From Vectrevirus DIJ06P1: a DNA stretch of 44,766 bases. How positions within the stretch are numbered: position 1 is the first letter of the stretch; each line of letters starts with the position of its first letter. The notes beneath the pieces are model-generated. The model was not told the DNA's origin. It worked only from the letters and a program-made list of their open reading frames with translations, and did no database searches. Where the stretch lies: the sequence record OZ035817.1; one strand, written 5' to 3'. The position numbers and the translations under genes were made by a program. Of this stretch, positions 4,334 through 44,766 are shown one piece after another.

Positions 4334-4356
4334 ATTTACTGGACACTATAGAAGAG
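4334..4356 (+). promoter_or_regulatory. SP6-type phage RNAP promoter
   Basis: ATTTACTGGACACTATAGAAGAGG about 80 nt upstream of tailspike 1. Confidence 0.75.
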
Positions 4357-4435
4357 GTAAGATAGCGCCGTTCTTTTGAGCGGCCTATTACTAGCCAATC
4401 TTCATAGGGAGGGTTGGAAAGTAATAGGAGATAGC

Positions 4436-6334
4436 ATGGCTAAATTAACCAAACCTAATACTGAAGGAATCTTGCATAAAGGACAATCTTTGTATGAGTA
4501 CCTTGATGCGAGAGTTTTAACATCAAAGCCGTTTGGTGCTGTAGGTGACGCCACTACTGATGATACGGAGGTTATAGCTGCTTCATTAAACTCTCAGAAA
4601 GCTGTCACAATCTCAGACGGTGTATTCTCTAGCTCTGGTATTAATAGTAATTACTGTAACTTAGACGGTAGAGGTAGTGGGGTGCTAAGTCACCGTTCCA
4701 GTACAGGTAACTACTTAGTATTTAACAATCCACGTACAGGTCGCTTAAGTAATATTACGGTAGAAAGTAATAAGGCGACTGATACAACTCAGGGACAGCA
4801 GGTATCTCTTGCCGGTGGAAGTGATGTTACTGTAAGTGACGTTAACTTCTCAAACGTTAAAGGTACTGGTTTCAGTTTAATCGCATACCCTAATGATGCG
4901 CCACCTGATGGACTTATGATTAAAGGTATTCGAGGTAGCTATTCAGGCTATGCTACTAATAAGGCAGCTGGATGCGTACTTGCTGACTCCTCAGTTAACT
5001 CCCTCATAGATAACGTCATTGCTAAGAACTACCCTCAGTTCGGAGCAGTAGAGTTGAAAGGTACAGCCAGTTACAACATAGTCAGTAATGTTATAGGGGC
5101 AGATTGCCAGCATGTAACTTACAACGGCACTGAAGGGCCAATAGCTCCTTCTAATAACCTTATCAATGGGGTAGTGGCTAATAATCCTAAGTATGCAGCG
5201 GTTGTTGCAGGCAAAGGTAGTACGAACTTAATATCAGATGTGCTCGTAGATTACTCAACCTCTGATGCTAGGCAGGCTCATGGTGTTACAGTAGAGGGTT
5301 CTGATAACGTCATAAATAATGTGCTTATGTCAGGATGTGATGGTACTAACTCTTTAGGACAAGGGCAGACTGCTACAATTGCACGCTTTATAGGTACAGC
5401 TAATAACAACTATGCGTCTGTATTTCCTAGCTACAGTGCTACAGGTGTTATTACTTTCGAATCCGGCTCTACCCGTAACTTCGTAGAGGTAAAGCACCCT
5501 GGCAGGAGAAACGACCTTCTCAGTTCTGCTAGTACTATTGACGGTGCAGCTACTATTGACGGCACTAATAATAGTAACGTAGTGCACGCACCTGCCTTAG
5601 GGCAGTACATAGGTAGTATGTCAGGTAGGTTCGAATGGCGGATTAAGTCCATGTCACTCCCTTCAGGCGTTCTTACTTCTGCTGATAAGTACAGAATGCT
5701 TGGGGATGGTGCTGTATCATTAGCTTTAGGTGGGGGTACTTCTTCTCAAGTTCGCCTATTTACTTCTGATGGTACTTCTCGGACAGTGTCCCTCACCAAC
5801 GGTAACGTGCGTCTTTCTACCAGTAGCACAGGCTATTTGCAGTTAGGTGCTGATGCAATGACCCCAGACAGTACTGGTACATACGCATTAGGTTCCGCCA
5901 GCCGAGCATGGTCTGGCGGTTTTACTCAAGCAGCATTCACTGTTACCTCAGATGCTCGGTGTAAAACAGAACCTCTCACTATCTCAGATGCCTTACTGGA
6001 TGCTTGGTCTGAAGTTGACTTTGTGAAGTTTCAGTATTTGGATCGTGTTGAGGAGAAGGGTGCAGACTCAGCTAGATGGCACTTCGGTATCATCGCTCAG
6101 CGAGCTAAGGAGGCTTTCGAACGTCACGGTATAGATGCACATCGCTATGGCTTTTTGTGCTTCGACAGTTGGGATGATGTATACGAGGAAGATGCAGATG
6201 GCTCTCGTAAACTGATTACACCAGCAGGTTCCCGCTACGGTATTCGTTACGAGGAAGTGCTGATATTAGAGGCTGCGTTGATGCGGAGGACTATTAAGCG
6301 TATGCAGGAAGCACTAGCTTCCCTGCCTAAGTAA
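4436..6334 (+). CDS. tailspike 1, beta-helix with C-terminal intramolecular chaperone (S74-like) domain
   Basis: ATG at 4436 after GGAG; Gly/Ser/Thr/Asn-rich repeats typical of a right-handed beta-helix; C-terminus SDARCK...WHFGIIAQRAKEAF resembles auto-cleaving chaperone domains. The ORF-track start at 4376 is probably too early. Confidence 0.8.
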   Translation: MAKLTKPNTEGILHKGQSLYEYLDARVLTSKPFGAVGDATTDDTEVIAASLNSQKAVTISDGVFSSSGINSNYCNLDGRGSGVLSHRSSTGNYLVFNNPRTGRLSNITVESNKATDTTQGQQVSLAGGSDVTVSDVNFSNVKGTGFSLIAYPNDAPPDGLMIKGIRGSYSGYATNKAAGCVLADSSVNSLIDNVIAKNYPQFGAVELKGTASYNIVSNVIGADCQHVTYNGTEGPIAPSNNLINGVVANNPKYAAVVAGKGSTNLISDVLVDYSTSDARQAHGVTVEGSDNVINNVLMSGCDGTNSLGQGQTATIARFIGTANNNYASVFPSYSATGVITFESGSTRNFVEVKHPGRRNDLLSSASTIDGAATIDGTNNSNVVHAPALGQYIGSMSGRFEWRIKSMSLPSGVLTSADKYRMLGDGAVSLALGGGTSSQVRLFTSDGTSRTVSLTNGNVRLSTSSTGYLQLGADAMTPDSTGTYALGSASRAWSGGFTQAAFTVTSDARCKTEPLTISDALLDAWSEVDFVKFQYLDRVEEKGADSARWHFGIIAQRAKEAFERHGIDAHRYGFLCFDSWDDVYEEDADGSRKLITPAGSRYGIRYEEVLILEAALMRRTIKRMQEALASLPK

Positions 6335-6419
6335 GCAACAGGCAGTGCGTAAGCACTGCTTTTCACGCAACTTTTCTTAAAGGTTATCATGGTGGTAGCC
6401 TTTCAGAAAAGGAGGGTAC

Positions 6420-8471
6420 ATGCTACAAAGATTAGGGGCTTCCATGGTGAAGTTCAAGAGTAAACTCGCTGGTTCCATCGAACGTATACTCTCAGACAAG
6501 TTAATGGATACTGTAAGCGTTAAAGACTTTGGCGCTAAAGGAGATGGTATCACAGATGATACTGCTGCTTTCAAAGCAGCAATAACTTGTGGCGCATCTA
6601 GGGTATTAGTACCTGCAGGCAGGTATGTGATTACTGACACACTTTCTTTGCCATCTGGGGTCTGGTTATTTGGTGAAGGTGTTGACTATTGGGACACCTA
6701 TCGTCCAGACGAGGGTAGGCTTATTAAGTCATGGAGTAAAGGAACGCACCTTGTGTTCACTGGTAGTGGGTCTAAAAACAAGCAATTTCTTAATATCTCT
6801 AATGAACGCCCAACAAAGACAATAAATGGAGTAACTTGCTCTTTTACCGACTTCACTAATAGTGATGCACAAGTAACAGAACCTGCTACACCACGTAGTA
6901 TGAGTATTGCTGTATCAGTACAGGCAGGCAGTGGCTTACGCGATCTTCGTATTATGGTAAACAATGAAGGTATCTCTGGTTACAATGACTTTGTTTCTAC
7001 AAACAAGCTAGGTGACAACTGGGATATTGGGTTGCATGTATATGACAGCTCAGATGCTGTAATTGATAATGTGCAAGTTGTTGGCTATTGGAAGGTTGCA
7101 GGTACACTCTTAACGGAGAACGACGGCTCCATCACAATGCGTGGTAATCCAGAGAAGACACTATTTAATAAGTTCTACACTCAAGGTATCAGAGGTTTAC
7201 TTATTAGGAATAGCCCGCAAGTAGATGTAGTATCTCAAGAGTCAGCAACCAAGTTAACCATTAAAGCGAATGCTACTTCCCGTATATTAGCACAAAATGG
7301 TTTTCGAGTAGCAGGTAGTACTACGATACATAGATGGACTAGTGTTACAAGACAAGGAGACACTTATGTATTAGATGGCATCACACCTGAGTTACCTTCT
7401 GCTTCTGGCCTCGGGGTTGTTCGTTTCCCATCTATGGGTAACAATTGGTCTGGTACAGTGTTCAACAATACTGTTGCTGTGTCCTTTGAGCACTCATCCG
7501 GTAGAACCTCAAGACAACTAGGACTTCCTGTATCTTTTGCTATGGAGATTGATGGCTTCCCTTGTCGTAACCTCAAATTCATAAACTTCAAGGCACAGAC
7601 TTCTTACGATGAAGGAAATACATTGTTTGGTGATATGCGCGATGCCAAGTTTGTGGCTAGCGAGTTCGAGAATGGTAGGCTGATTGCGTATGATTTGTCT
7701 CAGACTCAAGGGTATACTGGTAATATGCGGTCTGCTGTGTCTGACATGCAGTTTCATTCCACTAATATTGAAGGCTTCACACCACGTGATTTCTTCTATG
7801 ACCTAGGACATTTTCCTACTTCTTATACTGATGGTTCTTTTATCATGAAGCATTGGCGAGAAAAGGATTTACAGGTACAATGGTATAATGGTAAAGCATT
7901 CATCCATCTACATGAAGATGATGGCCGTGTAACACTTACCAGTAAAGGCGGTCTAGATTTGTATAACTTTAGTTCTACAAAAGACGTGACGTTCAAGGGT
8001 CGCAACTTTGTATTCAAAAACGATGCAAGTGAAGACGTATTGAAGTGGTTTGGCGGTTCAGGGAATATCTCTACGAAAGGAAACATCTCGCCTATGGTAG
8101 ATGGGGTTGCCTCTCTGGGTACAAATTCCTATCGCTGGGGCGCAGTGCATTCAGTAAATGGGACGTTACAAACCTCTGACGGTAGGCTAAAGGAGATCCA
8201 CGATATTAAACAAGAAGAACTTGATGCGGGGATTGCATTATCAGCAAGTCTAATCAAGTATCGTTGGTATGGAGAAGAAAAGTTCCACTTTGGTTGTATT
8301 GCCCAAGAGGTAATGTTAATCATGGAGAAACATAATCTAGACCCATTACAGTATGGAATGGTGCAGTATGATGAAGAGGCAGACATCTTTAGTGTAAACT
8401 ATGCTGAATTGAACAGCTTCTGCATCGCAGCTCTGTCTAGGAGGTTGAATGCCATTAATCAAATCAGTTAA
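6420..8471 (+). CDS. tailspike 2, pectate-lyase-like beta-helix with C-terminal intramolecular chaperone domain
   Basis: ATG after AAAGGAGGG; VKDFGAKGDGITDDTAAFKAAI is a pectate-lyase-superfamily N-terminal motif; C-terminus SDGRLK...FHFGCIAQEV parallels tailspike 1. Confidence 0.8.
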   Translation: MLQRLGASMVKFKSKLAGSIERILSDKLMDTVSVKDFGAKGDGITDDTAAFKAAITCGASRVLVPAGRYVITDTLSLPSGVWLFGEGVDYWDTYRPDEGRLIKSWSKGTHLVFTGSGSKNKQFLNISNERPTKTINGVTCSFTDFTNSDAQVTEPATPRSMSIAVSVQAGSGLRDLRIMVNNEGISGYNDFVSTNKLGDNWDIGLHVYDSSDAVIDNVQVVGYWKVAGTLLTENDGSITMRGNPEKTLFNKFYTQGIRGLLIRNSPQVDVVSQESATKLTIKANATSRILAQNGFRVAGSTTIHRWTSVTRQGDTYVLDGITPELPSASGLGVVRFPSMGNNWSGTVFNNTVAVSFEHSSGRTSRQLGLPVSFAMEIDGFPCRNLKFINFKAQTSYDEGNTLFGDMRDAKFVASEFENGRLIAYDLSQTQGYTGNMRSAVSDMQFHSTNIEGFTPRDFFYDLGHFPTSYTDGSFIMKHWREKDLQVQWYNGKAFIHLHEDDGRVTLTSKGGLDLYNFSSTKDVTFKGRNFVFKNDASEDVLKWFGGSGNISTKGNISPMVDGVASLGTNSYRWGAVHSVNGTLQTSDGRLKEIHDIKQEELDAGIALSASLIKYRWYGEEKFHFGCIAQEVMLIMEKHNLDPLQYGMVQYDEEADIFSVNYAELNSFCIAALSRRLNAINQIS

Positions 8472-8667
8472 GCAAAGTGCTGTACGCCAGAACACAGAAG
8501 AGCTTATTCAATCAGGACGTGACCCTAAGCAAGCCTATGCGATTGCCAAGGTATACAACGTCGTGCTATGAAGAAACTTTCTGCATCTTCTGCGTAAGCA
8601 GGTTAATATCTTAGTATAAACAAGGGCAGACTTAGGTTTGTCCTTAGTGTATTCCAAAGGAGGTAAC

Positions 8668-8796
8668 ATGCTGAAAGATGGTTGGGTTTCATATGACCCT
8701 ACAGACCCTAAGAATTGGCTACAGGTTATCGCTATAGCTTGTGCAGGTAGCCTATTGGCTGCCCTGATGTATTCATTATGGATGTACACAAAGTAA
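8668..8796 (+). CDS. small membrane protein, 42 aa
   Basis: Strong RBS AAGGAGG 5 nt before ATG; one hydrophobic helix; last ORF before the non-coding terminus region. Confidence 0.3.
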   Translation: MLKDGWVSYDPTDPKNWLQVIAIACAGSLLAALMYSLWMYTK

Positions 8797-9461
8797 CCAA
8801 AGTCAAAATTTTGATGTAGGCGTGTGTCAGCTCTCTCGCCCTCGCCCTCGCCGGGTTGCCCCCATAGGGTGGCCTGAGGGAATCCGTCGAAGACGGGTAG
8901 GGCTGATGTACTCCTTCGCTAGTACAAGGGAGGCGGGGAATGCCTAGGAAGCGCTAGGGCACGCCTTAGTATTGGACAAGGTGATTGCCTTAGTGAAGCC
9001 TCTTAGTACATTCCTGAGGCCATTCAGGGCGTTTATGAGGCATTGACAGGGTGGATGGGTGTGGGCTATCTGTTCGTTTCGCTACGCTTCACTCACTGCT
9101 CCTCACTTCGTTCGTCGCTGCGGTAGCCTGATGTGTACCTTAGGTTATTACTTGATGGATAGCTTAGGTTATAGCTTAGTGACCTACCTTAGTTATAACC
9201 TTAGTGCATAGCTTAGTATCAGCTTAGTAGTGTACCTTAGTAAGTCTTAGTGTCTTCTCTTAGTGATTGCACATGCAAGCATGTAAGATGCCATTAGGTC
9301 GCGGTCGGTAGACCGCTAAAGAAGGAGAGTAGTAATAAGATGCAGTAGGAGGAACACCAGAAGCCTCGCCAACCTAGCCTATCCTAGCTCTGTATCTATT
9401 GCTTTTCCTTAGTCTCACATGATAGACAACCTATCTTATTCCTAGTGATGATAACTTAGTG

Positions 9462-9490
9462 TTGACAAGATAATCTTAGTGTAATACTAT
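9462..9490 (+). promoter_or_regulatory. candidate host sigma70 early promoter
   Basis: TTGACA, 17-nt spacer, TACTAT; upstream of the first early ORF. Confidence 0.45.
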
Positions 9491-9562
9491 GCATCACGTA
9501 GGCGGTGCTGAGGCACCTAGTAGCCAGCTAGTAAGGCATACGAAGAGACTAGCGCTTACATT

Positions 9563-9575
9563 GCTCTTTAACAAT
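9563..9575 (+). repeat. GCTCTTTAACAAT 13-mer, copy 1 of 3
   Basis: Exact 13-mer repeated at 10108 and 10320 in early non-coding leaders. Confidence 0.6.
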
Positions 9576-9633
9576 TTGCTTAGTGTAACCTATGTATGCC
9601 GTGGTTAATTACTTATTGAATGAGGGATTAACT

Positions 9634-9813
9634 ATGACATTAAACAACCGTGAATTATCCGTTCTCTTCACTCTGTTGTGCTACATGATTCGTAACAACG
9701 AATTGCTTACAGATGACGAGTTGGCACTGTATCACCGCTTTCTTAACGAAGGTTGGACCGATACAGTTAATCAATACCGTAACATGATAGATGAGTTGAG
9801 GGAGGGTAAATAA
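9634..9813 (+). CDS. hypothetical early protein
   Basis: ATG at 9634 after GAGGG; the ORF-track start at 9592 has no RBS. Confidence 0.4.
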   Translation: MTLNNRELSVLFTLLCYMIRNNELLTDDELALYHRFLNEGWTDTVNQYRNMIDELREGK

Positions 9814-10037
9814 TGTATCAACATGAGGTATTCTTTGAATCAGCTAGCGAAGCTATTCGCTTCCGTGATGATATGATGCAAGCTGGTGTAGGCGTTGATG
9901 TGTATCACTATTTGATAGATTACGACACTGAATATCACCGAGTTACCTTAGTATCTGAGTATGACAACCAAGTCATTACTGAGTATCTAGGCAGTGAAGA
10001 TTACGATTACGATGAAGTAATCACGACAAATCTCTAA
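9813..10037 (+). CDS. hypothetical acidic early protein
   Basis: ATG after GGAGGG, overlapping the upstream stop; acidic, Tyr-rich. Confidence 0.5.
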   Translation: MYQHEVFFESASEAIRFRDDMMQAGVGVDVYHYLIDYDTEYHRVTLVSEYDNQVITEYLGSEDYDYDEVITTNL

Positions 10038-10045
10038 ATTAACTG

Positions 10046-10074
10046 TTGACAGCCACGGCATACAAGGTTACATT
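10046..10074 (+). promoter_or_regulatory. candidate host sigma70 early promoter
   Basis: TTGACA, 17-nt spacer, TACATT; same architecture as T7 A-type early promoters. Confidence 0.45.
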
Positions 10075-10107
10075 AAGCATCAAGACGGCGACGTCTTTAA
10101 ACATCCC

Positions 10108-10120
10108 GCTCTTTAACAAT
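10108..10120 (+). repeat. GCTCTTTAACAAT 13-mer, copy 2 of 3
   Basis: Exact repeat, about 60 nt downstream of the 10046 promoter. Confidence 0.6.
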
Positions 10121-10319
10121 ACGGTTTGTGTCTTGATAGGCTAACTAACTAACTAAGGTAATTATCATGAAAGGTTTAATTTGTGTAGAACGTATGGTCA
10201 ATGGTAAACTTGAAATATTACCACTGGAAAACCAATCTAGCTTCAAAGAGTGGTATGGCTGTTTCTCACTGATTTAAGGTAAAGGCTGGCACTAGTCAGC
10301 CTATCAAGGCGCAAACCAA

Positions 10320-10332
10320 GCTCTTTAACAAT
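10320..10332 (+). repeat. GCTCTTTAACAAT 13-mer, copy 3 of 3
   Basis: Exact repeat, about 100 nt upstream of ocr. Confidence 0.6.
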
Positions 10333-10428
10333 TTGGATGGTAGCTTCTTAGTCTGGATAGGTTAAACCTAGGAGATTCTCTTGAGTCTCCTATAATGTAA
10401 CCTAACTAACTAAATGAGGATTAATAAC

Positions 10429-10788
10429 ATGGCTATGTCTAATATGACTTACTCTCAGGTTTACAACAACGCTCATGCTGCATTAGTTGAACGTATCTGG
10501 AATGATGCTATTGATTGTATTGATAACGCGCATGATGCAATCCATGATGTGGCGGATAGTGCTGTACCAATCTATTATGCTGACATCTTCTCCGTGATGG
10601 CGAGTGAAGGAATTGATCATTTCTTCGAAGACTCCGGCCTGATGCCAGACACTAAGGATGTAACGGTAGTATTGCAAGCCCGTATCTATGAGCAACTCAC
10701 AATTGATCTATGGGAACGTGTTCAGTATATGATTGTTGAATACATCAACTCCGCCGAATATTTAGAAGAAGAAGAAGAGGAAGAATAA
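10429..10788 (+). CDS. ocr: Ocr-like DNA mimic (anti-restriction, T7 gp0.3 homolog)
   Basis: ATG at 10429 after GAGGA; [42 protein letters not shown] and [15 protein letters not shown] match T7 Ocr as I recall it; poly-Glu C-terminus. Confidence 0.85.
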
Positions 10789-10893
10789 TATGGAAAAGCT
10801 ATACAACTTTATCTTTTCAGACGGTGTAACCCTGAAGTGTTCCCTACGATTCGCACAAATTCGTGAGGAAGTACTAGGCACTACATACAAACT

Positions 10894-10918
10894 ATTTAGC
10901 TGACACTATAAGAGAAGG
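10894..10918 (+). promoter_or_regulatory. variant phage-promoter-like sequence
   Basis: ATTTAGCTGACACTATAAGAGAAGG; position +1 is A rather than G, so function is uncertain. Confidence 0.35.
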
Positions 10919-10979
10919 CTTAACAAGGCGTTGCTACGGTAGCGCCTGATTAAACTTTCACTTACTAGGAGTTAAGACT

Positions 10980-11207
10980 ATGGATTTAGATAGCATCATT
11001 ATGGCATTTGCTCTTATTGGCTTAAGCTGGTGCTCCTATCACCTTTACCGTGAGTTCTTATTTGATAAAGCTAAACGCAAACTAAGAAAGGAAGGCGGTA
11101 ATTACCTTTGTGTAAGAGATGGGCTTGTAGAATACATTGCACCTAACGGCACGGAATGCGCCATTAGCAAAGATGCATTTATAGAAACGTGGCATTACAT
11201 CAAGTAA
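10980..11207 (+). CDS. hypothetical early protein with N-terminal hydrophobic segment
   Basis: ATG after AGGAG; 75 aa. Confidence 0.5.
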   Translation: MDLDSIIMAFALIGLSWCSYHLYREFLFDKAKRKLRKEGGNYLCVRDGLVEYIAPNGTECAISKDAFIETWHYIK

Positions 11208-43646: not shown

Positions 43647-44608
43647 TGAGTTATACTTTCACAGAACATATAGCCAACGGTACGCAAGTAACCTATCCCT
43701 TTAGCTTTGCTGGTAGGGATAAAGGTTATCTTCGTGCCTCAGATGTGATAGTGGAGTCTCTTCAAGGTAACACTTGGATTGAGGTTACATCTGGCTGGCA
43801 ACTAACTGGCACGCACCAGATTACTTTTGATGTAGCACCAGTTGCAGGTTTGAAGTTCCGTATTAGAAGGGAAGTACAAAAGGAGTATCCATACGCTGAG
43901 TTTGACCGTGGTGTTACCTTGGATATGAAGTCTTTAAATGGTTCTTTCATTCATATACTGGAGATTACACAGGAGTTACTTGACGGGTTTTATCCAGAAG
44001 GATACTTCATTAAACAGGATGTAAGCTGGGGCGGCAATAAGATTACTGATTTGGCTGATGGCACAAATCCTGGAGATGCAGTAAATAAAGGGCAGCTTGA
44101 TGCCATCGACAAGAAGCATACAGATTGGAACGCCAAACAGGACATTGAGATTGCTGGCCTTAAGGCTGGTATGACTTCTGGTATTGCGCACAGAACTGTT
44201 CCTTGGTACACGATAGCCCAAGGTGGTGAGATTTCCGTAAAACCACCTTATGAATTTCAAGATGCACTAGTTTTCCTTAATGGGGTGTTGCAGCACCAAA
44301 TTGTAGGCGCATACTCTATAAGCAACAACACTATCACTTTCGCAGAGCCGCTTGTGGCTGGTACAGAGGTGTATGTGCTGATTGGTAGTCGTGTGGCTAC
44401 ATCTGAACCTAATATTCAGTTAGAGTTGAACTTTGACTTAGTAGAAGGCCAACAAGTAGTACAGATTGGCTCTGCATTTAAGTACATTGAGGTCTACCTT
44501 GATGGATTATTACAACCTAAACTTGCTTATCAGGTAGACGGTGACATTGTTACTTTCTCAGAGGGAGTGCCAGAATGCCGGATGACTGCTAAGATTATCA
44601 CAGCATAA
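43646..44608 (+). CDS. tail fiber adaptor protein (gp17 N-terminal-domain-like)
   Basis: 320 aa; ATG overlaps the upstream stop; short protein suited to docking the separately encoded tailspikes. Confidence 0.7.
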   Translation: MSYTFTEHIANGTQVTYPFSFAGRDKGYLRASDVIVESLQGNTWIEVTSGWQLTGTHQITFDVAPVAGLKFRIRREVQKEYPYAEFDRGVTLDMKSLNGSFIHILEITQELLDGFYPEGYFIKQDVSWGGNKITDLADGTNPGDAVNKGQLDAIDKKHTDWNAKQDIEIAGLKAGMTSGIAHRTVPWYTIAQGGEISVKPPYEFQDALVFLNGVLQHQIVGAYSISNNTITFAEPLVAGTEVYVLIGSRVATSEPNIQLELNFDLVEGQQVVQIGSAFKYIEVYLDGLLQPKLAYQVDGDIVTFSEGVPECRMTAKIITA

Positions 44609-44617
44609 GGAGGTAGG

Positions 44618-44766
44618 ATGATTAACTCCGAACTGGTAGATAGTGGTGTGAAGCTTGCGCCACCTGCACTCGTATCAGGTGGGTACTTCCTCGGTATCAG
44701 TTGGGATAATTGGGTGTTAATAGCAACATTCATTTATACCGTGTTGCAAATTGGGGACTGGTTTTA
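44618..44766 (+). CDS. class II holin (T7 gp17.5-like), truncated by the window end
   Basis: ATG after AGGAGGTAGG; hydrophobic core LAPPALVSGGYFLGISWDNWVLIATFIYTVLQIG resembles T7 holin; the frame continues without a stop to the last base. Confidence 0.6.
   Translation, partial: MINSELVDSGVKLAPPALVSGGYFLGISWDNWVLIATFIYTVLQIGDWF

Follow-up and report, generated by a model that had tools for sequence, protein, structure and literature searches.

A predicted collapsed terminal repeat and one-strand short-repeat array at the concatemer junction of a K1-5-like Vectrevirus genome

Introduction

Where, in a permuted phage record, do the two physical ends of the genome lie, and which sequences at those ends are likely to matter for cutting and packaging? 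In T7-like phages, short-read assembly loses one copy of the direct terminal repeat (DTR), and the remaining repeat ends up mid-contig (PMC10438801). The record of Vectrevirus DIJ06P1 (OZ035817.1), analysed here over its full 44,766 nt (hereafter the window), raises this question at a single gap between two genes. A first-pass annotation, made from the sequence alone, had proposed that the genome ends and a collapsed terminal repeat lie in this gap, and had suggested aligning it to the termini of SP6 and K1-5. Here, we locate the ends by homology and examine the short repeats, hairpins and pause-like signal that surround them.

Results

Both ends of K1-5 align to one non-coding interval

The window is collinear over its whole length with K1-5 (AY370674), and all of its genes lie on the + strand. 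Its termini interrupt the homolog of gp38, indicating that a circle was opened at an arbitrary point to give the linear record, and the window itself has no terminal overlap or duplicated end. The non-coding stretch, put at about 800 bp in the first-pass annotation, measures 8797–9633, between the stop of the K1-5 gp49 homolog (8796) and the start of the gp1 homolog (9634). From the K1-5 annotation and the alignment, the upstream gene (8668–8796, + strand) is the last gene of the right end, a homolog of K1-5 gene 49 (42 aa; 43984–44112 in K1-5), and the downstream gene (9634–9813, + strand) is the first early gene, a homolog of K1-5 gene 1 (781–960 in K1-5). The neighbouring tailspike gene of the window differs from that of K1-5.

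Both ends of K1-5 find their partners at this gap. The K1-5 right end (43761–44385) aligns to 8446–9068 and the left end (1–2102) to 8836–10982, and 8836–9068 matches both K1-5 termini (1–234 and 44152–44385), which form an exact DTR of 234 bp in the K1-5 record. Across the junction interval, Vectrevirus phages are 90–93% identical to the window, and alignment to the SP6 and K1-5 termini found the boundary contexts of both intact. Because the window keeps both the left and the right boundary context, we predict a single collapsed DTR copy of 233 bp at 8836–9068, with its left end at 8832–8836. The placement of the genome ends and of a collapsed repeat in this gap is thus borne out by homology. 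Judged in this way, the interval very probably holds the concatemer junction of a podovirus akin to K1-5 and SP6 (Autographiviridae, Molineuxvirinae, Vectrevirus), its ends being placed by homology, and the window is, on the same alignments, a circularly collapsed, K1-5-like Vectrevirus genome whose two predicted physical ends have been merged into one repeat copy.

The small terminase subunit gene lies at 30–329 and the large subunit gene at 761–2659. The large subunit matches PHROG terminase families, and the segment 761–6549, which contains its gene, shares 95.9% DNA identity with the matching region of K1-5; the two observations together assign the enzyme to the short-DTR packaging class. 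The junction also falls at internal positions in 11 related IMG/VR contigs, but these uncurated contigs place it arbitrarily and are uninformative as a guide to physical ends.

The block at 8820–9130, described earlier as GC-rich, has a GC content of 57.9% compared with 44.9% for the window and is the GC maximum (0 of 1779 sampled 311-nt windows were as high). It contains the motif GTTGCCCCCATAGGGTGGCC (8855–8874), whose resemblance to the T7 left end had been put forward at first pass and is upheld by the T7 record (NC_001604). T7 carries CCCCCATAGGGGG at 26–38 of its 160-bp repeat, and the window carries the palindrome CCCCCATAGGG (8859–8869) 24–34 nt from the predicted left end at 8836. T7 thus has this palindrome equally far from its left end, and the subfamily conserves it. 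It occurs once in the window, as does CCCCATAGGG even when one mismatch is allowed.

Short repeats on one strand lie before, inside and after the predicted terminal repeat

The first-pass annotation had counted about 18 irregularly spaced CTTAGT motifs following the GC-rich block. We found 15 exact copies in 8797–9590, confined to the + strand with no copy on the − strand, compared with 0.31 expected from the motif's frequency elsewhere in the genome (Poisson p ~1e-20); two CTTAGG bring the total to 17, close to the original count. Window-wide, CTTAGT occurs 51 times, compared with 32 ± 5.5 in shuffles. The location and spacing of the motifs needed correction. Three CTTAGT (8965, 8989 and 9002; 8965–9007, + strand) lie inside the GC-rich block and inside the predicted terminal repeat, and three further copies (CTTAGT at 8610, CTTAGG at 8631 and CTTAGT at 8643; 8610–8648, + strand) lie to the left of the repeat, placed like the right-end array of T7 (SRR). 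Past the repeat, a core array of ten (TAC)CTTAG(T/G)(G) units (9139–9264, + strand), placed like the T7 left-end array (SRL), is regular, with a period of about 12 nt (10–13 nt, with one 24-nt gap; successive spacings 24, 12, 13, 12, 12, 11, 13, 10 and 13 nt). Four scattered CTTAGT follow (9408, 9455, 9475 and 9579; 9408–9584, + strand), at offsets similar to those in relatives. The extended consensus of the repeats is TACCTTAGTG. Between terminal repeat and core array lies a pyrimidine-rich, unstructured spacer (9069–9138, + strand) that varies in length among relatives through indels in the alignment; the DNA fold of 9040–9125 is less stable than that of shuffled sequences (z = +1.56).

The same arrangement recurs in other phages. 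Three copies lie within 250 nt before the DTR in each of K1-5, SP6 and K1E, and T7 has three xTAAAG there; inside the repeat, K1-5 and K1E have three copies and SP6 has one, and T7 has three CTAAAG. Counted before, inside and after the repeat, the copies number 3/3/12–15 in the window, K1-5 and K1E (with a ~12-nt period) and 3/1/12 in SP6, and the T7 motif, also confined to a single strand, numbers 3, 3 and 13 with a 13-nt period. The analogy drawn at first pass to the CCTAAAG repeats of T7 is therefore sound for layout: as in SRL/SRR, a one-strand motif stands on both sides of and within the terminal repeat, with an array of 12–13-nt period after it. The motifs themselves, (C)ACCTAAAG in T7 and (TAC)CTTAGT(G) in the window, share only ACCT..AG, and CCTAAAG itself does not describe the window's repeats, so the window array is a counterpart of T7 SRL/SRR and not the same element. 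The window differs from T7 in having a 50–75-nt pyrimidine-rich spacer between repeat and array, and we found no equivalent of the T7 phage promoter phiOL near the window array. Beyond these shared motifs, T7 has no alignable DNA similarity to the window.

Among closer relatives, the array layout is the same in K1-5, K1E, SP6, UAB_Phi78, Mt1B1_P10, Kenya-K31, Proteus phage PM116 and Klebsiella phage VR702. In all Escherichia, Salmonella and Proteus relatives examined, as well as VR702, the array lies 50–75 nt past the repeat, with 6–10 copies at an 11–13-nt period. Klebsiella phage cp4 has CTTATG at an exact 12-nt period, and the Klebsiella phages VLCpiA2a, FBKp16 and K22PH164C1 have ACCATAGTG and ACCTAGG at the corresponding place. 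Layout is thus preserved across four genera and motif sequence varies by lineage. In an alignment of eight phages, mean pairwise identity was 84% in motif columns and 50% in spacer columns, and 33 of 60 motif columns were invariant compared with 9 of 66 spacer columns (Fisher p = 1.3e-6), a contrast that is inflated by the tendency of the aligner to anchor on the motifs. Outside the original genome papers on SP6 and K1-5 (Dobbins 2004; Scholl 2004), our literature search found no description of these repeats in SP6-like phages.

Conserved layout and polarity with a sequence that changes by lineage are what a protein-binding array should show, and fit one that would co-evolve with its partner. 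With low confidence, we propose the small terminase (30–329) as that partner. Small-terminase binding sites are repeated at the cos and pac regions of other phages, for instance the R sites of lambda cosB. Those sites likewise comprise several short repeats in the same orientation beside a terminase cut site, an analogy of function only; the window motifs are shorter and more numerous, and binding in the window's group is putative. More broadly, we tentatively suggest, as a possibility we would not favor strongly, that the one-strand repeats (ACCTTAGT in the window; in Klebsiella relatives ACCATAGTG, ACCTAGG or CCTTATG; and in T7 ACCTAAAG), perhaps along with the hairpins at 9271–9316 described below, form an ancient junction recognition platform that co-evolves within lineages. 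An oligomeric packaging protein, most plausibly a small-terminase ring, might wrap ~120 bp there with one motif per ~12 bp. If true, a function would thereby be given to the SRL/SRR arrays of T7, for which, to our knowledge, none has been agreed since their first description.

The repeats could instead serve transcription, as sites for a host or phage regulator of the early promoters or as elements that affect the passage of RNA polymerase. A strong sigma-70-like early promoter, TTGACA-17-TACTAT, is predicted at 9462–9490 (+ strand), on the basis of 10 of 12 consensus matches only; in Proteus phage PM116, a promoter is annotated at the matching offset, and a second host-type promoter is predicted at 10046–10074. 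Host-type early promoters follow the repeat array in T7 as well. The CTTAGT copies at 9455 and 9475 lie just upstream of the 9462–9490 promoter and inside its spacer, and all copies are on the transcribed strand, as a role in transcription would have it. Yet 13 of the 20 copies (in the repeat, left of it and in the array at 9139–9264) lie upstream of any early promoter, the array follows the repeat boundary at 50–75 nt in every lineage, and we know of no regulator that binds such repeats at early promoters. We therefore regard a transcriptional role as unlikely to be the main one, although transcription and packaging are not mutually exclusive.

The edges of the predicted repeat are conserved and its middle is not

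Exact DTRs computed from the records measure 174 bp in SP6, 234 bp in K1-5 and 288 bp in K1E. Despite these lengths, the right boundary, GTGGGCTA followed directly by TCTGTTC, is identical in the three phages, and no more than 4 nt separates their left boundaries, which lie inside GTGTGTCAGCTCTCTCGCC, in the context GTGTGTCAGC(TC)(TC)TCGCC. These DTRs are homologous to the predicted one of the window (~90% for K1-5), with the same boundaries, the same flanking genes and CTTAGT repeats equally placed; the window differs by substitutions and indels in the middle of the repeat, giving the predicted 233 bp, and by holding one copy where the three records hold two.

An alignment of five repeats showed that the left ~40 nt (TCGCCCTCGCCCTCGCCGG..CCCCATAGGG) and the right ~25 nt (TTGACAG.GTG...GTGGGCTA) are conserved and that the middle is rich in indels. 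From its conservation, the left-boundary block (8803–8875; consensus CAAAATTTTGATrTAGGCGTGTGTCAGsTCTCTCGsCCTCGsCCTCGCC.GGTTGyCCCCATAGGG) is a candidate region for recognition and cleavage of the left end. Distant Klebsiella Molineuxvirinae phages, which are otherwise unalignable, match the interval only in this block, which includes ~30 nt of unique sequence before the repeat; it is also present in the 11 IMG/VR contigs. The right-boundary block, TTGACAGGGTG...GTGGGCTA (9043–9068), likewise delimited by conservation, closes at the predicted right genome end; TTGACAG.GTG and GTGGGCTA are invariant in the window, K1-5, K1E, Mt1B1_P10 and SP6. Conserved edges around a free middle are the pattern expected if the edges act as recognition and cutting sites. 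Hairpin searches at the left end of the repeat and at its right boundary gave no significant fold.

The TTGACA at 9043 is conserved, but it has a poor −10 partner, failed the promoter scan and was rejected as a promoter. A host promoter has recently been reported at the T7 concatemer junction; we rejected a counterpart here, as the T7 TGn and −10 element (TGTTACAGT) is missing from the window, which reads TGTTCGTTT.

The ends of one SP6-like phage, UAB_Phi78, have been mapped by Bal31 digestion and run-off sequencing or sequencing drop-off (PMC4837284), and they raise a different placement. The DTR annotated in that record (1–180) is shifted 10–16 nt to the left at both edges, with its start 16 nt ahead of the left end of SP6 type and its last base 10 nt short of GGGCTA. 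Transferred to the window, such boundaries would lie at ~8817 on the left (TAGGCGTG...) and ~9058 on the right, 10–19 nt left of the SP6/K1-5/K1E positions. Experimental mapping speaks for this placement. Against it, GGGCTA closes the exact repeats of SP6, K1-5 and K1E alike and their starts agree to within 4 nt, the window is far nearer to K1-5 (~90% identity here) than to UAB_Phi78, and several further records begin at positions equivalent to 8834–8836, though these may have been trimmed by homology. The UAB_Phi78 placement is thus improbable for the window, and we retain 8836–9068, with an uncertainty from this offset of roughly 20 nt on the left and 10 nt on the right.

A putative class II pause signal straddles the right boundary of the predicted repeat

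The sequence TATCTGTT (9067–9074, + strand) straddles the right boundary and matches the core of the class II pause/termination signal to which T7 RNA polymerase responds. Read on the non-template strand, the signal consists of ATCTGTT with A, C or T in front; it works without a hairpin, and the concatemer junction of T7 is a natural site of it (bioRxiv 10.64898/2026.02.12.705533, 10.1101/2021.01.11.426313, PMC11617373). In the window, ATCTGTT is preceded by T on the + strand, and HATCTGTT is found on that strand of the 44.8-kb window only here. ATCTGTT also stands at the corresponding place in T7, K1-5, SP6 and K1E. The seven-base core, the preceding T, the lack of a hairpin and the position at the right edge of the repeat are all as at the T7 concatemer junction, with a difference of 1 nt: in T7, ATCTGTT begins directly after the repeat, whereas its A is the last base of the predicted repeat here. 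The window further differs from T7 in having an SP6/K1-5-type polymerase and a short T-run, and several Klebsiella relatives have ATCTGTC at the corresponding site. Termination, unlike pausing, calls for a U-run downstream; the sequence after ATCTGTT is CGTTTCG, with a longest T-run of three, suggesting a pause at most; the T7 junction also has no long T-run.

The transcribed strand is strongly depleted in the six-base core. The window has two ATCTGT on its + strand compared with 14.7 expected (Poisson probability of two or fewer, ~5e-5), and 20 on the − strand compared with 14.8 expected; K1-5 has two on the + strand and 19 on the other. In SP6, Kenya-K31 and cp4, the strand contrast is weak, since the − strand (7–9 compared with 13–15 expected) is below expectation as well as the + strand (4–6 compared with 12–13 expected). 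That the window and K1-5 avoid the core on one strand suggests a response of the phage polymerase to the signal. As a lead for further work, all five genomes examined retain the pause core at the junction, and the window and K1-5 avoid it on the transcribed strand, suggesting that SP6/K1-5-type polymerases may use T7-like junction pausing.

TATCTGTT lies at the right edge of the predicted terminal repeat, in a T7-like position, and the nearest phage-type promoter upstream of it, which could feed it, is at 4337 on the same strand. We found no phage-polymerase promoter between 4337 and 10897 and, in a scan of 8300–10400, no intrinsic terminator; late transcripts of the concatemer would consequently reach the junction unless stopped in 4351–8300, upstream of the scan. 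Pausing at the T7 junction has reportedly been proposed, by Zhang and Studier in 2004 and by Lyakhov and colleagues, to help concatemer processing.

The promoter map also bears on whether the repeat array could be a replication origin, its repeats being iterons to which an initiator protein binds. Direct repeats regularly arrayed in non-coding DNA that is partly AT-rich would suit an origin, and T7 has a secondary origin, phiOL, just past its left array. T7-type origins, however, depend on a phage-polymerase promoter, and 4337–10897 has none; copies on the far side of the repeat and inside it fit a junction element better, and we know of no iteron-binding initiator in the T7/SP6 group. An origin is accordingly very unlikely, and a junction element remains our preferred reading of the array.

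Small open reading frames and conserved hairpins in the gap

Two conserved hairpins or palindromes, ACATGC-AA-GCATGT (9271–9284) and GCGGTC-GGTA-GACCGC (9301–9316), follow the core array on the + strand and are joined by the invariant linker TAAGATGCnATTAGGT. Across eight relatives, RNAalifold predicted 14 pairs, six of which had two-sided compensatory changes, with no pair broken in the two stems, and the DNA fold has a z of −2.9. An RNase III-type leader was considered at the CTCTTTAACAAT boxes (9566 and 10109), whose T7 counterpart lies upstream of gene 0.3, and was rejected: the boxes fold like shuffled sequences (z = −0.8 and −0.5). An Rfam scan of 8300–10400 (E <= 1) returned a chance snoRNA-like match only.

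Small ORFs in the gap do not keep their frame or length in K1-5, K1E, SP6 and Mt1B1_P10, with the exception of 9489–9608. We rejected 8822–8947 and 9059–9211 as genes for this reason; the former would in addition straddle the physical end.

Discussion

Terminal-repeat and concatemer-junction architecture of this type is an already known kind of feature: T7 likewise has a short exact repeat (160 bp) with the palindrome CCCCCATAGGG ~25 nt from its left end. The remaining interest of the interval lies in the short-repeat arrays, the hairpins and the strand-specific avoidance of the pause signal. That the phage has no fixed ends, and that headful packaging of circularly permuted DNA leaves the interval as a regulatory spacer, would agree with a permuted record lacking a duplicated end but is extremely improbable, given a terminase region ~96% identical to that of K1-5, whose record has an exact repeat at both ends, boundary sequences that are conserved across genera, and the fact that permuted single-repeat contigs are the usual assembly result for this type of phage.

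Taking fixed ends with a short terminal repeat as the preferred reading, the parts of the interval can be assembled into a model. The virion DNA would be linear, with the same ~233-bp sequence at each end, and the assembler would have merged the two copies. By analogy to T7, replicated genomes would join head to tail through their repeats, leaving one repeat per junction. Late transcripts from the promoter at 4337 would enter the junction and come upon TATCTGTT at its right boundary, where a paused polymerase might mark or open the site for processing, as proposed for T7. Terminase (30–329 and 761–2659) would cut at the left boundary (8832–8836) and at the right boundary (9068), and DNA synthesis would duplicate the repeat to give two copies per packaged genome. 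Our best guess is that the CTTAGT arrays would bind a phage packaging protein, most likely an oligomer of the small terminase. A host-type promoter in the early leader (~9400–9633) would drive the first genes after entry of the left end into a new cell.

If the placement is right, the predicted left end indicates the position of base 1 of the genome, and the assembled record is short of one ~233-bp repeat copy, so that virion DNA of ~45.0 kb is expected. It also bears on annotation, as the small ORFs that some pipelines call in the interval are probably spurious. Close relatives carry an identical copy of the 39-aa ORF at 9489–9608, which K1E and SP6 lack and whose ATG overlaps the early promoter's −10 box.

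Depletion of the pause-signal core from the transcribed strand

Across the whole window, ATCTGT, the core hexamer of the T7 RNA polymerase class II pause signal, is depleted from the transcribed strand (2 copies observed versus 14.7 expected), whereas the other strand carries 20 copies against an expectation of 14.8. K1-5 has a like contrast between strands, with 2 copies on the transcribed strand and 19 on the other. For SP6, Kenya-K31 and cp4, we counted 4–6 copies where 12–13 were expected, and in these phages the other strand also fell below expectation (7–9). The copy at the concatemer junction was kept in every genome compared (the window, K1-5, SP6, Kenya-K31 and cp4).

Boundaries of the terminal repeat in related phages

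A TTGACA motif (window 9043–9048) lies a constant 20 nt ahead of the right end of the direct terminal repeat (DTR) in all five aligned phages. Because this motif has no good -10 partner, it may be part of a terminase site and not of a promoter. For UAB_Phi78 (L009, 1–190), the annotated DTR was mapped experimentally to 1–180; compared with the boundaries of SP6, K1-5 and K1E, it starts 16 nt further left and ends 10 nt further left, an offset that may reflect either a real difference or imprecise mapping.

Four Klebsiella relatives, cp4 (L013), VLCpiA2a, FBKp16 and K22PH164C1 (L018–L020), retain the boundary blocks and the layout of the repeat array with different repeat motifs, the substitutes being CTTATG, or ACCATAGTG and ACCTAGG. 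The right boundary in these four phages reads ATCTGTC rather than ATCTGTT.

Paired stems beyond the repeat array

Directly beyond the repeat array are two hairpins or palindromes (window 9271–9316), ACATGC-AA-GCATGT and GCGGTC-GGTA-GACCGC. The linker between them, TAAGATGCnATTAGGT, is invariant. Among the eight phages compared, including Proteus PM116, 6 of the 14 base pairs show compensatory changes. Neither a T-run nor promoter geometry accompanies these hairpins. For T7, Chung, Nardone and Hinkle reportedly proposed in 1990 that a 'hairpin end' of the fold-back kind, located past the repeat, takes part in processing.

A repeated box and a small ORF in the early region

The box CTCTTTAACAAT occurs twice (window 9566–9577 and 10109–10120), each copy lying 3' of a strong host-type promoter and 5' of an early gene. 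Inspection of the T7 sequence revealed that the same box is likewise present in the leader ahead of gene 0.3. An RNase III site at these copies is only a guess, as the RNA folds around the two boxes are not significant (z = -0.8 and -0.5, respectively).

A 39-aa ORF (MHHVGGAEAPSS..., window 9489–9608) is identical in K1-5 and Mt1B1_P10, whereas K1E and SP6 lack it. The start codon (ATG) of this ORF overlaps the -10 box of the 9462–9490 promoter. The ORF probably does not represent a gene, and its identity in these relatives simply reflects very conserved DNA.

Record ends and gene content

A gp38 homolog (64 aa) spans the end and start of the window (44618–44766 joined to 1–46), and the record ends are therefore assembly artefacts. 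Near the start, an HNH endonuclease gene (331–774; PHROG 59/959, E = 1e-29) separates the small from the large terminase gene; K1-5 has nothing at this position, and the gene is probably a homing endonuclease insertion. The 683-aa tailspike (6420–8471) matches tailspike families, yet its DNA match to the K1-5 endosialidase is confined to the first ~130 nt, a sequence difference suggesting that the receptor specificity of this phage differs from that of K1-5.
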